A program made the position numbers and the translations under genes. Positions 5,818 to 48,381 of a stretch of 60,064 nt of DNA are shown in pieces. The stretch spans positions 1 to 60,064 of the forward strand of contig CAAELJ010000155.1 of assembly GCA_900756725.1 (NCBI GenBank), in the 5' to 3' direction. A model generated the notes under the pieces. It was not told where the DNA came from. It did no database searches and worked only from the letters and a program-made list of their open reading frames with translations. Position 1 is the first letter of the stretch. Each line of letters starts with the position of its first letter. This stretch comes from an uncultured Collinsella sp. Its GTDB lineage: Bacteria > Actinomycetota > Coriobacteriia > Coriobacteriales > Coriobacteriaceae.

Positions 5818-5848
5818 CTGGTCATTTAAGAACGTCCCCAATGACCAG
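5818..5848 (+). repeat. REP-like hairpin, family 1 (loop TAAGAACGTCCCC)
   Basis: CTGGTCATT-loop-AATGACCAG, 4 nt after the stop codon. Confidence 0.85.
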
Positions 5849-5941
5849 TCTGAAATAAATCCCAAGCCTCGCTCCAAAATAGTTCGCTAAGGTTTACTAT
5901 TACGCTCATAAAGTAGTATGAGGCTAACAGTGGGGGATACC

Positions 5942-6655
5942 ATGGCAACGCAGAAAGCCTACGTCCAGGTTAAGGATCTCAAAAAGCACTACGGCGACGG
6001 TGATGCGCGCCTGACGGTACTCGATGGCATCGACACGTCCATCAATCGTGGCGAGATCTGCGTCATGCTGGGGCCTTCGGGTTCGGGCAAATCGACGTTT
6101 CTTAACCTGATCGGCGGCCTGGAGGATGCCGATGCCGGCTCTATTCTGGTGGACGGCTGCGACCTCACGGTGCTTAAGCCTACCGACCTGGGCGAGTATC
6201 GCCGCCGTGAGCTGGGCTTTGTCTTCCAGTTCTACAACCTGGTGCCCGATCTCACCATCAAGGAGAACATCGAGGTCACGGCGCACCTGTCCAAAAACCC
6301 GCTCAATGTCGACGACCTGCTGCGTTCACTGGGCCTCTACGAGCACCGCAACAAGTTTCCGCGCCAGGTTTCGGGTGGCCAGCAGCAGCGCTGTGCCATC
6401 GGCCGCGCGCTCGTCAAAAACCCGGGTCTGCTGCTGTGCGACGAGCCCACGGGCGCGCTTGATTACAAGACGTCCAAGGAAATCTTGCAGCTCATGGAGG
6501 ATGTAAACCGCACCTACGGCTGCACCATCATCATTGTCACCCACAATGCCGCCATCGCGCGCATGGCAAATCGCGTGCTGCGCCTGCGCGACGGGCGCAT
6601 CGTCGAGGATGAGCTCAACGAGTCGCCCGTCGCGGCCGCCGAACTCGATTGGTAG
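5942..6655 (+). CDS. ABC transporter ATP-binding protein (MacB/LolD-like)
   Basis: [30 protein letters not shown] and VTH motifs. Confidence 0.95.
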
Positions 6656-6663
6656 GCGGCGCC

Positions 6664-9330
6664 ATGACACCTCTCGCAAAACGTCTCCCGCGCGAGCTGC
6701 GCCGCAATATCGGCAAGTACCTGGGAATCTTTTTGCTTATGTTCGGAAGCATCGCTCTCACCTCGGGCTTTTTGCTCGCGGCGCATTCCATCGGTTGCCT
6801 TATCGACGACATGCGCAATGCGTACACGATTGAGGACGGCCGCGTGACCACCTCCTTCGAGGCTACCAAAGACCAGCTCAAGGCTGCCGAGGATGCCGCC
6901 AGTGACGTCGGCGGCGTCGCGCTCTACAAGAATTTCTCCATCGACGCCATCATCAAAAAGACCGCCGGCGACGACGGCACCAAGCGCACGCTGCGCACCT
7001 ATGCGCACCGCACCAAGGTCGATATCGCGTCCTACTGTGAGGGCAAGGAGCCCAAGACGGACGATGAGGTGGCAATCGACCGTGTCTTCGCCACCAACAA
7101 CGATCTCGCCGTGGGCGATAAGGTCGAGCTCGAGGGTCGCACCTACACCATCTGCGGCATCATGACCCAGCCCGATAGCCAGGCGCTGCTCCTCAACAAC
7201 TCCGACTTTACGATCAACACCGTCACCTATGGTGTTGCCGAGGTTGCCGACGCCGGTTTTGCCGCGCTCGAGGACGCCGGCGGCGCACCCGCCTACACCT
7301 ACTCCTTCACCTTTGCCGATCGCGACCTCCCCACCGCGGACCGTACCGATGCCGAGCAGGATATGGTAGAGGCGCTTACCGATGCCGATGCACGCGTGGA
7401 TGACCTCATCGACGCCGATTCGAATCAGGGCATTGGCTATGCGCGCGACGACGTGGACGGCGACTCCATGATGTGGATGACGCTGCTCGACATCATCATC
7501 GTGATCATGGCGTTCGTCTTTGTGGTCCTTACCGACGCCACCATCGAGGAGGAGAGCGCCATCATCGGCACGTTGCTCGCCAGCGGCTATCGTCGACGCG
7601 AGATCGTGCTGCACTACCTTGCGCTTCCCGCCATCGTGGGCGTGGTCGCGGCGCTTTTGGGCACTGCGCTCGGCGTTGTGTTCTTTACCGAGCCCATGCG
7701 CAGCCTCTATTACGGTTCGTACAGCCTGCCGCCCTTCCAGGTGTACTGGAGCTGGGAGATCTTTGTGAAGTGCGCCGTGGTTCCCGCCGCCGCGCTCATC
7801 CTCATCATGCTGGTGGGTCTGCTTCGCAAAATGGGTAAGACGCCGCTGCAGTTTCTTCGCCACGAGGCGAGCGGCAAGTCTGGCACCAAGCGCGGCCTGC
7901 AGCTGTCGGAGCGCATGGGCTTTGTTTCCCGCTTCCGCCTGCGTATCTTCCTGCGCAACCTGGGCAACTTCGCCACGCTCTTCGTGGGCATCGCGTTTGC
8001 GTCGCTGCTACTGCTCTTTGGCCTGGCGATTTTGCCCACGATGACGCACTATGCGGACAACCTCGAGACAAGCCTGGTCGCCGAGCACCAGTACACGCTC
8101 AAGGCGCCACTGGAGCTCGAGGGCACTGCCGAGGAGCGCGAGCAGTGGTCGGCACTCGAGCGCCTGCAGTCGGTTGACGGCGTGCTGCTTTCCGCCGCCC
8201 AGGATGCCGATGACGAGCTTGACGACGCGGCCGATGCGGCGCAGGCGGCAGCCGATGCCGCGGCCGCATCTCCGTCTGCCGAGAGCCTGACCGCAGCGCA
8301 GGATGCGCTTGCCAAGGTCCAGGACAAGAAGGATGCGCTCTGCGCGCGCCTTGGTGATCTTGCCGATGCCCTCGGCTGCGACCGCGATGAGGCTATCGAC
8401 CTGATCGACAAGGCCCCTAAGATCGACACTGACAACGATGATATCCACCCGGTCAATACGACCGACAACGGCGCGGGTGCAATCGCACAGGCCGAGAAAT
8501 ACGCCGTTTACCAGCTGCAATACGACCGCGGCGATGGAAATGGCGAGGAGACGATTTCCGTCTACGGCATTTCATCCGATTCGCGCTACTGGAAAGATCT
8601 CAACGTCGGCGACGGCCGCGTCGTCTTTGGCGGCGGTCTGCTCGATAAGTTTGGCTGGAGCGAGGGTCAGAAGGTCACGCTCAGCGACAAGTACGAGGGC
8701 GAGCATTATTCCCTCGAGTACGCGGGCAAGGATTGTACCTGGGGCTCCAAGTCGGACATGAATATCTATATGAGCATCGACGACTTTAACGAGCTGTTCG
8801 GCAACGATGCCGCCTACTTTAACGGCTATGTGAGCGACGAGAAGCTCGACCTCGATGCTCGTTACTTTGCCGGCGACACCACGCCCGACGATATGCGCGC
8901 CGTGGGCGACCAGTTCATCGGCATGATGAGCAAAATGATCGGCATGATGGTCGGGCTTGCGGTGTTCATCTTCCTGCTGTTTATGTACCTGCTGACCAAG
9001 GCGGTGATCGACCACAGCGCCCGTTCGATCAGCTACATGAAAGTCTTTGGCTATCGCGATAGCGAGATCTCGCATCTGTACATCCGCTCGATCACGCTGT
9101 GCGTGGCGGCGTCGCTCGTGCTGAGCCTGCCCGTGATCATTGGCTCGCTCACGGCCATCTTCCGCTCGATGCTGCTCGCCTACAGCGGCAATATCGAGAT
9201 CTACGTGCCCACTTGGTCCATGACGGCGTGCGTGGGCATTGGCTTTGCGACCTACCTGGTCGTGGCGCTGCTACACACGCGTTCTATCAAGCGCGTCAGC
9301 CTGGCCGAGGCCCTTAAAGTCCAAGAGTAG
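6664..9330 (+). CDS. FtsX/MacB-type ABC permease (duplicated module)
   Basis: Two FtsX-like TM blocks (IGTLLASGY; ISYMKVFGY) with large extracellular domains. Confidence 0.88.
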   Translation: MTPLAKRLPRELRRNIGKYLGIFLLMFGSIALTSGFLLAAHSIGCLIDDMRNAYTIEDGRVTTSFEATKDQLKAAEDAASDVGGVALYKNFSIDAIIKKTAGDDGTKRTLRTYAHRTKVDIASYCEGKEPKTDDEVAIDRVFATNNDLAVGDKVELEGRTYTICGIMTQPDSQALLLNNSDFTINTVTYGVAEVADAGFAALEDAGGAPAYTYSFTFADRDLPTADRTDAEQDMVEALTDADARVDDLIDADSNQGIGYARDDVDGDSMMWMTLLDIIIVIMAFVFVVLTDATIEEESAIIGTLLASGYRRREIVLHYLALPAIVGVVAALLGTALGVVFFTEPMRSLYYGSYSLPPFQVYWSWEIFVKCAVVPAAALILIMLVGLLRKMGKTPLQFLRHEASGKSGTKRGLQLSERMGFVSRFRLRIFLRNLGNFATLFVGIAFASLLLLFGLAILPTMTHYADNLETSLVAEHQYTLKAPLELEGTAEEREQWSALERLQSVDGVLLSAAQDADDELDDAADAAQAAADAAAASPSAESLTAAQDALAKVQDKKDALCARLGDLADALGCDRDEAIDLIDKAPKIDTDNDDIHPVNTTDNGAGAIAQAEKYAVYQLQYDRGDGNGEETISVYGISSDSRYWKDLNVGDGRVVFGGGLLDKFGWSEGQKVTLSDKYEGEHYSLEYAGKDCTWGSKSDMNIYMSIDDFNELFGNDAAYFNGYVSDEKLDLDARYFAGDTTPDDMRAVGDQFIGMMSKMIGMMVGLAVFIFLLFMYLLTKAVIDHSARSISYMKVFGYRDSEISHLYIRSITLCVAASLVLSLPVIIGSLTAIFRSMLLAYSGNIEIYVPTWSMTACVGIGFATYLVVALLHTRSIKRVSLAEALKVQE

Positions 9331-47330: not shown

Positions 47331-47354
47331 GATCGGTCCTTTCCGTGCCGGAGA

Positions 47355-48092
47355 CTATGCGCCGATGGCGCCGCCGCAGTATTCGCAGCGCCCACTGGCA
47401 TCGGGAATGGTGGTGGCTCCGCAGAAGGGGCAGGTCACCGCGGTCTTGGGGGCCTTGGCGGCCACGACGCTGTCGCGCGTCTCCTGGCGCAGCTGCACCA
47501 GCGCGTCGCGGACCTCGGTTGCCTGGCGCTTGGCCTCGCGGTATTCGATGGAGCCGCGCTGATCGATGGTGGAGTCGTTTACGCGCAGGTTGATCTCGGT
47601 AAAGTACGGCGTGTTGACGTGGATGGTCAGATTAAAGTCGTAATCCAGGTCGTAGCGCGGCGGGTTGTAGCTCTCGCGCTCGCCGTCCTTGGTCTCGCGA
47701 TAGATTTCGGTGCGATGCTCGTCGATATCCATATCGCAGCCGAGTACCTGCGAGAACTCGATGATGTCGGGATTGGCGTCGCGCCAGCGGCTCTGCGAGG
47801 TAATGATCAGCAGGCCCGCGTCCTCGTCGAGCATGATGTTGGTGCGCCCGGCAGAAAGCGTGCGCGTGGGGTTGAACGACGCCAGGCGCTCGGCATTGGC
47901 CTCGCGGTAGGCGAGCTGCTCGCGGATATCGTCCGCGGTGCTGGAGCGATAGCCGTGAAAGTAGGGGGAGAGCTTGCCGGCGCACTCTTTGCACAGGTAG
48001 CCTTCATTGATTTTTGTCTTACCTAGAAGTCCCAGCTCGGTACCGCAAATCGCGCACTCTTTCTTCTCGAACATCTTGTCAAAGAAGCCCAT
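47355..48092 (-). CDS. DUF4428-like zinc-finger protein
   Basis: MGFF..CAICG..LGLLG..GYLCKEC and C-terminal CPFCGA..CEYCG. Confidence 0.78.
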   Translation of the reverse strand: MGFFDKMFEKKECAICGTELGLLGKTKINEGYLCKECAGKLSPYFHGYRSSTADDIREQLAYREANAERLASFNPTRTLSAGRTNIMLDEDAGLLIITSQSRWRDANPDIIEFSQVLGCDMDIDEHRTEIYRETKDGERESYNPPRYDLDYDFNLTIHVNTPYFTEINLRVNDSTIDQRGSIEYREAKRQATEVRDALVQLRQETRDSVVAAKAPKTAVTCPFCGATTIPDASGRCEYCGGAIGA

Positions 48093-48213
48093 GGCTGCCT
48101 CCCATCAACTGGTAGCGTGTGTCACTTTTGATGATGGGGGAGTGCGCAGCCTTTCACGATACCCAGACGGCTCAACGAGTCTCCACAACTGGGACACATG
48201 GCCCATTTTTCCT

Positions 48214-48381
48214 ACTCATTGGGGACGTACTTAAATGAGTGAAACTACTCATTTAAGTACGTCCCCAATGAGTGCTCGCAGAACGAGAGTGGATAATCTC
48301 CCATTTTTGGCCTGCTTGTGGGCTCAAAGTGGGAGATTGTCCGCTCTCGTTGTTTGGGTGTCCAAAAATCCCCGCTCGTTT
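48214..48381. repeat. Family-1 hairpin (48214-48240) plus 144-bp composite repeat, copy 2 (48238-48381)
   Basis: Two back-to-back, opposite ACTCATT-loop-AATGAGT hairpins. The downstream 115 bp match 39379-39493 at 102/115 positions. Confidence 0.9.

Follow-up and report, generated by a model that had tools for sequence, protein, structure and literature searches.

Intergenic hairpin repeats at the borders of variable gene modules in Collinsella

The stretch of DNA analysed here, called the window below, is 60,064 nucleotides (nt) long and is the entire contig CAAELJ010000155.1 of an uncultured Collinsella sp., whose draft genome (G000) comprises 1.97 Mb in 164 contigs and is 85% complete. Our subject is a set of short hairpin repeats in its intergenic spacers, together with groups of genes, or modules, that lie between copies of these repeats and are present in some Collinsella genomes and absent from others. 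A first-pass annotation, made from the letters of the window, had described three such modules and proposed that the hairpins serve as points of gain and loss, loosely analogous to integron attC sites. Genes in the window were called heuristically from open reading frames (ORFs), third-position GC and Pfam, and the earlier gene labels agree with these calls.

Hairpin families and the modules between them

Module (i) (5918-9330, plus strand) is a MacB-type pair that consists, by Pfam, of an ABC ATPase (5918-6655) and an FtsX-type permease (6649-9330). As had been proposed, it is enclosed by two hairpins of the family we call F1. The left one lies at 5818-5848 on the plus strand (CTGGTCATT-TAAGAACGTCCCC-AATGACCAG; -6.9 kcal/mol, z -4.0) and the right one at 9327-9355, also on the plus strand, with a stem that includes the permease stop codon TAG. 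Both contain TTTAAGAACGTCCCCAA exactly, at 5825-5841 and 9334-9350, in each case on the plus strand. Module (ii) (26415-32518, plus strand) encodes a LacI regulator, a putative isomerase, the N and C halves of a transketolase and an FGGY kinase. To its left lies a hairpin of a second family, F2 (GTAGTCAA-TTTGGGACGGGGCTTTT-TTAGCTAC; 26219-26252, plus strand), and to its right three GGGAC-type hairpins within 32518-32658, one at 32518-32554 and two of family F2 at 32569-32602 (plus) and 32623-32658 (minus). The exact 20-mers said to bracket this module are there: ATTTGGGACGGGGCTTTTTT occurs on the plus strand at 26226-26245 and 32576-32595, with no occurrence expected by chance, and a copy with 3 mismatches lies on the minus strand at 32631.

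Module (iii) (39614-48092) holds Pfam-assigned genes for a 7TM sensor, a histidine kinase and a LuxR-type regulator on the plus strand, and for SPFH, DUF4428 and two unknown proteins on the minus strand. The 144-bp direct repeats described around this 8.9-kb block are present, but they proved to be composite. The left repeat (39356-39535) is made of a minus-strand F1b unit (39358-39386), a long hairpin (39397-39460), a tail and a minus-strand F1a unit (39499-39527), and the right one (48213-48381) of F1b units on the minus (48213-48241) and plus strand (48246-48276), the long hairpin (48285-48348) and the tail. Aligned without gaps, 39350-39493 and 48238-48381 are identical at 118 of 144 positions. 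Identity is 89% over the last 115 nt; in the first 29 nt, where the F1 loop is inverted, 16/29 positions agree. The direct partner of 39358-39386 is 48213-48241 (93% identical). A fourth bracketed block, additional to those of the first-pass annotation, occupies 48242-54933 between two identical 29-nt minus-strand F1 copies (48213-48241 and the F1b hairpin at 54934-54962). The module inside it, (iv) (48441-54810), encodes, again by Pfam, an NH-like hydrolase and an esterase on the minus strand and a phosphotransferase system (PTS) EIIBC protein and an apiosidase-like protein on the plus strand.

The repeat families were observed directly. With at most 2 mismatches allowed, the window contains 8 copies of TTTAAGAACGTCCCCAA, whereas 100 shuffles gave none, and all 8 F1 copies sit between called genes. 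The F1 unit is a stem of 7-9 bp with a conserved 13-nt loop, TAAG(A/T)ACGTCCCC. Its subfamilies F1a, F1b and F1c differ by compensatory stem changes (TAGTCRTT/AAYGACTA, ACTCATT/AATGAGT and GGCAC/GTGCC), and it is because of this compensation that we regard F1 as a hairpin, folding as single-stranded DNA alone being weak for lone units (-4 to -7 kcal/mol, z -1 to -4). Very high single-strand stability was found for the F1 doublet, F3 and the long hairpin: the F1b pair at 48213-48276 forms a 28-bp doublet (-30.8 kcal/mol), the long hairpin, GAGAGTGGATAATCTCCC...GGGAGATTATCCACTCTC, reaches -24 kcal/mol (z -9.7), and the F3 hairpin at 37639-37691 (AACCACCACAAAGG-TGCCTGTCC-CCTTTGTGGTGGTT), a site where relatives carry inserts of 1.2-1.4 kb, reaches -29.8 kcal/mol.

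In the whole of G000 there are 18 exact F1 15-mers (8 of them in this window), F2 in 13 places and F3 at 38 loci. The exact F1 15-mer is found in 9 of 17 other Collinsella genomes, with 12-50 copies in eight and a single one in G263, and in none of 133 genomes from 68 other genera of the order, and thus in this genus only. F1, F2, F3 and further families share a common plan, in which a short stem presents GGGGAC(A/G) in the loop; hairpins with a GGGAC[AG] loop number 142 in G000 versus 39 in a reversed-genome control. The units measure 27-37 nt and are extragenic, multicopy and imperfectly palindromic, like repetitive extragenic palindromic (REP) sequences, with copy numbers per family below the figure (>100) that is usual in classical REPs. 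Length, intergenic position and palindromic form identify the Collinsella hairpins as palindromes of the REP type. (G/C)TAG stands at the start of many F1a and F2 copies, its bases being paired within the stem, and CGTC lies inside the F1 loop. Rfam, at its gathering thresholds, gave no matches in the window.

Occupied and empty sites across the genus

The window was first compared with 18 Collinsella genomes, 16 of them at ~88-97% identity and 2 at ~75%; the fetched loci were aligned to it locally, BLAST pieces stopping at repeat-bearing spacers. Empty sites were then sought in 120 genomes drawn evenly from the genus, the 18 included. All are draft assemblies or metagenome-assembled genomes (MAGs), and related genomes are close kin, so that counts over them are not independent. 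The presence and absence states and the junction sequences given below are read directly from these assemblies.

As the first-pass annotation had expected, each of its three modules, and module (iv) as well, is lacking from some genomes with breakpoints at the repeats and a single copy kept. Module (i) is present in 110 of the 120 genomes and absent from 2 (G049 and G130); in 5 distant genomes no clear call could be made and 3 had no match. In G049 and G130 the junction reads left flank, one plus-strand F1 hairpin, right flank. In G002, a methyltransferase gene is inserted at the hairpin site at 9330.

Module (iii) is missing from 6/120 genomes, which retain one repeat and in which GH1, repeat and hydrolase are contiguous; the earlier prediction that removal of the 8.9-kb block would join the halves of the sugar locus is thus borne out in natural chromosomes. 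The left repeat together with the block is found in 13/120 genomes, in 9 of which both repeats stand on one contig, ~8.7-8.8 kb apart. The block without the left repeat is the state of most of the 120, and the segment that contains this repeat (39337-39542) is missing in all 7 close relatives with the junction on one contig. The empty allele of G013 corresponds exactly to the left flank of the window followed by the left copy and the tail of the right copy. In the empty allele of G003, the switch falls inside the first F1 hairpin; since the switch positions of the two differ, there are two distinct crossover points for module (iii). In G012, the whole GH1 region (37492-39542) is missing between the DUF4867 and sensor genes, with 98 nt in its place, and from the aligned sequences this region appears as another variable unit at the sugar locus.

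The empty form of module (iv) occurs in 41/120 genomes (36 with full-length pieces and 5 with partial pieces crossing the junction), and the junction holds one minus-strand F1 hairpin. In G018 and G006, direct repeats of ~55 nt (F1b plus GCAGTTGGGGACACTCC.TGCCGA) lie at both ends of the module, and chromosomes of the G018 or G006 type would be expected to yield the empty allele seen in G004, G010 and G012. Two side observations belong to this module. A ROK protein gene is inserted at 54935 in G018. At 49997-50003, a palindromic insert of ~171-183 nt, which G000 lacks, is present in all relatives with the site on one contig; a 7-nt direct repeat, GCAAGAC, borders the insert of G003.

Module (ii) is absent from 7 of the 16 close relatives. 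The spacer between the nucleoside hydrolase gene (nucH) and luxS, in which it lies, is contiguous and empty in 49/120 genomes and split at the same two points in 56. On single contigs its content amounts, depending on species, to 0, 1.7, 5.5, 6.2-6.4, 7.5, 10.4-10.5, 12.6-12.9, 14.0 or 16.9 kb. One repeat does stand at the breakpoint of the empty site, as had been expected, but only the right-hand F2 half is retained and the left flank differs from that of the window. In G005 and G017 the module is present and the left F2 unit missing. A ROK protein gene is inserted at 32519 in G001. Within the module, a 114-nt palindromic element (30862-30975) resembling a miniature inverted-repeat transposable element (MITE) occurs in 13 places in the genome, and relatives have ~70-80 nt there.

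The same outcome is seen in a repeat family unrelated to the hairpins. Direct copies of an 85-nt palindromic family on another contig of G000 (C46:15872-15943 and C46:17059-17133) bracket 1.1 kb, and G005 lacks this segment and keeps one copy. Direct repeat pairs thus do mark segments that get lost.

Hairpin units also change by themselves. Arrays collapse and expand at fixed sites between relatives: at 5826 and 9335 they are 110-200 nt longer in relatives and comprise several units, so that the single hairpins of the window at 5818-5848 and 9327-9355 look like collapsed arrays. At these two sites the loop of the first unit is opposite in G003, G012 and G016 with the stem kept, and the direction thus flips between species. 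The same orientation ascribed to the bracketing hairpins proved not to be enriched: where neighbouring F1 units are separated by more than 300 nt on a single contig, 3 pairs have the same orientation and 4 the opposite one. The view of the hairpins as points of gain and loss therefore holds in part. Breakpoints do fall at the repeats, but the turnover of hairpin units is independent of that of the modules.

Sequencing reads were also consulted. Two raw-read runs (X21 and X22) contain 8 and 0 reads of the organism, and in two runs available in contig form (X1 and X2) unitigs end at the repeats. In the latter, one repeat copy is joined to another in a small number of places with low support, as from 39523 to 48244 at depth 5 with 25 nt on one side; such joints may come from the repeats or from other organisms.

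Other features of the window may be listed here. A further F1 hairpin (17832-17861, plus strand) follows a polysaccharide deacetylase gene, and at another F3 hairpin (56696-56733) synteny with 7 relatives stops. A low-GC (49-53%) island at 33163-36801 encodes a BglG-type antiterminator, a PTS EIIBC protein and an esterase; of the 16 close relatives only G017 has it, and neither border carries genome-repeated sequence. Two elements of G000, at 21354-21583 and C46:41756-41986, have paired ends (..AAAAAATGCCAAATATGAGTACTG..) around only ~140-200 nt. At the C46 site, G003, G004 and G010 have ~4.7 kb extra that G000 lacks, and a short derivative beside a full-length element is what the pair looks like. 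At the start of the window (1-517), an inverted repeat of ~154 nt belonging to a multi-copy family occurs in two copies (44-197 and 304-457), and a hairpin TGATCC-CCTAGGGACGGAAGAAAAC-GGATCA lies at 225-255.

Y1 transposase genes and their flanking repeats

Three genes of G000, each encoding a protein of ~265 amino acids (aa), match Y1_Tnp and stay below the cut-off of the NCBIfam model REP_Tyr_transpos. Two of them, C19:20710-21501 and C47:2000-2806, pass the Y1_Tnp cut-off and reach 55 and 68 bits with REP_Tyr_transpos (cut-off 80). H65 and H67, which form the HUH motif, and Y124 are invariant in 22 homologues, and the C19 and C47 genes keep both HUH and the catalytic Tyr. The link between repeats and enzyme genes is seen directly in their flanks: the C19 gene stands between inverted F1-type units (minus strand upstream, plus strand downstream) and the C47 gene between F3 hairpins. 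Of 69 full loci from other Collinsella species, again close kin and non-independent, 65 have the upstream motif and all 69 have the downstream one.

The predicted fold (pLDDT 88.9) points the same way. Its top Foldseek match is 4er8_A (E 3.7e-6, TMt 0.71), a structure of the Escherichia coli REP-associated tyrosine transposase (RAYT) in complex with a REP hairpin, and ISDra2 and IS608 TnpA come next; a PDB sequence search with the C19 protein gave no relevant match. The model also predicts a helical C-terminal domain, for which the HTH_23 match (E 0.067) is below threshold. The features by which REP/RAYT systems are recognised on the enzyme side, namely a Y1 gene between inverted repeats, HUH, Tyr and a predicted Y1 fold, were all found. 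On this evidence we assign the hairpin families to Y1 (HUH) transposase systems of a RAYT/TIRYT-like kind, the genes for which lie at other places in the genome. The first-pass remark that no integrase lies nearby is then beside the point, because the hairpins are REP-type families with cognate Y1 transposases elsewhere.

The third paralogue (C164:7278-8090) has its HUH and catalytic Tyr replaced and no flanking repeats; it is therefore not a candidate enzyme and looks like an inactivated copy. Mobile elements were noticed beside the hairpins as well. The loops of F3 hairpins are interrupted at C47:2829, C80:116 and C116:6250 and also at C93:5258, C102:5154 and C162:1249. Three of these loci border, on its two sides, an element whose terminal inverted repeats (TIRs) are ~50 nt long and which looks like an insertion sequence (IS) targeting the F3 loop, and three more half-copies abut other sequence. 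At C28:51-1333 there is an IS110-family transposase gene (178 bits), just upstream of which an F1 unit (1232-1262) and a long-hairpin element (1268-1333) may represent its target or guide region.

Routes of module loss and the closest known systems

The best reading of these data, and one that we consider reasonably probable, is that recombination between direct REP-type copies in inter-operon hot spots removes modules. REP-type hairpins would build up as variable mosaic arrays in the spacers between operons. Where two direct copies come to lie around an operon-sized module, they could recombine, with the result that the module is removed and one copy is left, by a process that could be RecA-dependent or rely on short homology. 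The same spacers are hot spots that hold different modules in different species, exchange probably taking place through the conserved flanking genes. We infer that the deletions arose by recombination between repeats rather than through an enzyme working on the hairpins; the single copies left, which are chimeric, the varying crossovers, the finding of all intermediate states and the like outcome in another repeat family fit this.

Several observations weigh against this reading. Identity between F1 copies extends over only 17-29 bases, a short stretch for RecA-dependent recombination across 3-7 kb. The empty allele of module (ii) is not derivable from the state of the window by simple repeat-to-repeat recombination, and for modules (ii) and (iv) the direction could be gain or loss. 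Contigs of draft genomes and MAGs tend to break at these repeats; conversely, the repeats explain contig breaks in Collinsella MAGs. Many indels have no repeats at their ends, such as the low-GC island at 33163-36801, a 6.4-kb insert at 27427 in G017 and a 4.2-kb insert in G006 and G016, and a deletion of 39337-54996 in G002 leaves no hairpin. Since repeat-free indels exist, the repeats are neither necessary nor sufficient.

The statistics are of the same mixed kind. Genome-repeated segments are present in 14 of the 33 spacers of the window. With the contig-end spacer left out, and variation of at least 1 kb scored among the 16 relatives, such variation is found in 8/13 repeat-bearing versus 3/19 repeat-free spacers (Fisher p=0.02). 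Set against the first-pass condition that bracketing should exceed what repeat density predicts, this count is favourable in the window, but two controls, which also count against our reading, do not reach significance. For spacers of at least 100 nt, the figures are 8/13 versus 2/9 (p=0.10). Out of sample, on contigs C46 and C87 compared with five relatives (C46 contig-end spacers and the first 31 kb of C87, lacking in four relatives, left out), they are 5/10 versus 6/32 (p=0.09). Statistical support for the association of repeats with modules is therefore modest.

These two non-significant tests are what would be expected if REP or terminator elements merely occupied the spacers between operons and if tolerated indels could break nowhere but in these spacers, turnover going through the flanking core genes with the repeats uninvolved. 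In line with this, 6 of the 11 spacers with events of at least 1 kb on C46 and C87 are repeat-free, like orientation of F1 units is not enriched, and F2 resembles an intrinsic terminator (GCCCCGTCCC..GGGACGGGGC followed by T6). The nucH/luxS spacer, moreover, resembles a classical hot spot in its behaviour: its contents take many alternative forms, and the left breakpoint falls at the stop codon. However, the empty alleles of modules (i), (iii) and (iv) and of the C46 segment consist of left flank, one chimeric copy and right flank, exactly as recombination between repeats predicts, and the two-repeat precursor state of module (iii) exists in the genomes that have its left repeat together with the block. 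We therefore hold such passive co-residence to be unlikely, while leaving it a real chance.

An enzyme might instead do the work. In a scheme of the IS200/IS605 kind, a Y1 transposase acting in trans would cut single-stranded DNA at two like-oriented hairpins and rejoin it, so that modules are excised and perhaps inserted. The cognate Y1 genes with intact HUH and Tyr and a RAYT-like predicted fold, the junction of module (i), which is exact to the hairpin, and the single ordinary genes found at hairpins in relatives (methyltransferase, ROK proteins and an AAA ATPase at an F3 site) would all suit this scheme, as would the short identity between F1 copies. TnpAREP is reported to cut and rejoin REPs in vitro (PMC3333891), a model that is also described in PMC3733652. 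Against this, the two empty alleles of module (iii) cross over at different points inside the 144-nt repeat, a repeat family without the GGGGAC motif yields the same pattern, and hairpins are gained and lost without modules. Searches at E<=1e-40 among the 18 genomes of the same genus found no module relocated elsewhere in a genome lacking it. In addition, modules of 3.4-8.7 kb are long for single-strand excision as known from IS608. Taken together, we think it distinctly unlikely that the modules are such active cassettes, and slightly less probable still that GGGGAC-loop hairpins are working Y1 recombination sites, a like-oriented pair of which defines a unit to be excised and re-inserted at another hairpin. 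If this were true, Collinsella would have a cassette system driven in trans by HUH enzymes, and this would go some way towards explaining its very many species-level variants of gene content.

The analogy with integrons, in which the hairpins would be attC-like sites of a tyrosine recombinase, did not stand up, and we regard it as almost certainly wrong. Cassette insertion would also give one repeat at an empty site and two at an occupied one. No IntI was found, however: the integron-integrase model TIGR02249 scores at best 71 bits against a cut-off of 265 in this 85% complete assembly, in which there are just two Phage_integrase matches, one containing a stop codon. The modules comprise 2-8 genes, occupy both strands and have regulators of their own (LacI, LuxR, two-component), crossover points vary, and the conserved part of the hairpin is the 13-nt loop and not the foot of the stem. 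A composite transposon or IS-bounded module was also considered and rejected, no transposase family being found in the genes of the window or in the small inserts of relatives.

Whichever route is taken, the repeats mark where sugar-utilisation and signalling modules differ between species and are useful for pangenome work in the genus. For work on what domesticated RAYT-type transposases and their repeats do in the cell, Collinsella is a culturable human-gut genus that offers natural alleles (two repeats around the module, or a single repeat where the module is lacking) at several loci, and the cognate enzyme genes are identified; therefore the contributions of repeat and enzyme to gene loss are directly measurable.

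Alternative gene contents at fixed core-gene sites with short repeats at the borders are known from Neisseria, in its minimal mobile elements and dRS3/Correia repeats, and the Collinsella loci resemble these as well as integration hot spots between core genes. They share with integron attC sites the single repeat at an empty site and repeats of the same orientation on both sides of an occupied one, and differ from integrons in having no IntI, no promoterless single-ORF modules, no array beside an integrase and no fixed crossover point. REP sequences are also known as targets of ISs (Tobes and Pareja 2006, PMC1525189; ISPpu9, PMC12288879). As far as these accounts go, the IS with 50-nt TIRs that interrupts F3 loops and the IS110-family gene beside F1 and the long hairpin are similar cases, whereas the variable modules of Collinsella themselves carry no transposase. 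In Pseudomonas, REPs have served as markers of old, stable regions (PMC3390384), in contrast with the Collinsella repeats, which mark variable borders.

The likeness to REP/BIME and REPIN-RAYT systems of Enterobacteria and Pseudomonas is closer. Here too, short multicopy extragenic palindromes form doublets and arrays of alternating orientation, families are clade-specific, a Y1 HUH gene strongly conserved across the genus stands between inverted repeats, and the closest fold is 4er8. Unlike in those systems, copies are fewer in Collinsella (18 exact F1 15-mers, 38 F3 loci), and the motif is in the loop, whereas REPs have an unpaired GTAG/CGTC tag at the foot. The protein, of ~265 aa, has a putative C-terminal helix-turn-helix (HTH) region, and the host is a gut anaerobe of the Actinomycetota. 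Proteins of TnpAREP subclass 2.1 carry a C-terminal HTH, and near them, in the account of Quentin 2018 (PMC6006769), its authors found no REP-like sequences. The word 'Actinobacteria' is absent from the main texts of PMC3733652, PMC5581495 and PMC6006769, and our literature search returned nothing on intergenic or palindromic repeats in Collinsella, nor on RAYT in Actinobacteria.

On a comparison of motif and protein features, the closest described system would be, above all, the TIRYT/TIRtron class, in which the inverted repeats flanking the Y1 transposase share GGGGWSAS (Di Nocera 2013, PMC3733652). As that class is described there, its repeat families are, like ours, moderately abundant and found in dimers or clusters, and GGGGACAG, beside the C19 gene and in the F3 loop, fits GGGGWSAS. 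The differences are that in Collinsella a small hairpin carries the motif in its loop and that the commonest F1 form, GGGGACGT, departs from GGGGWSAS. To systems of this type Collinsella adds a well-documented link between REP/RAYT-type repeats and the loss of modules.

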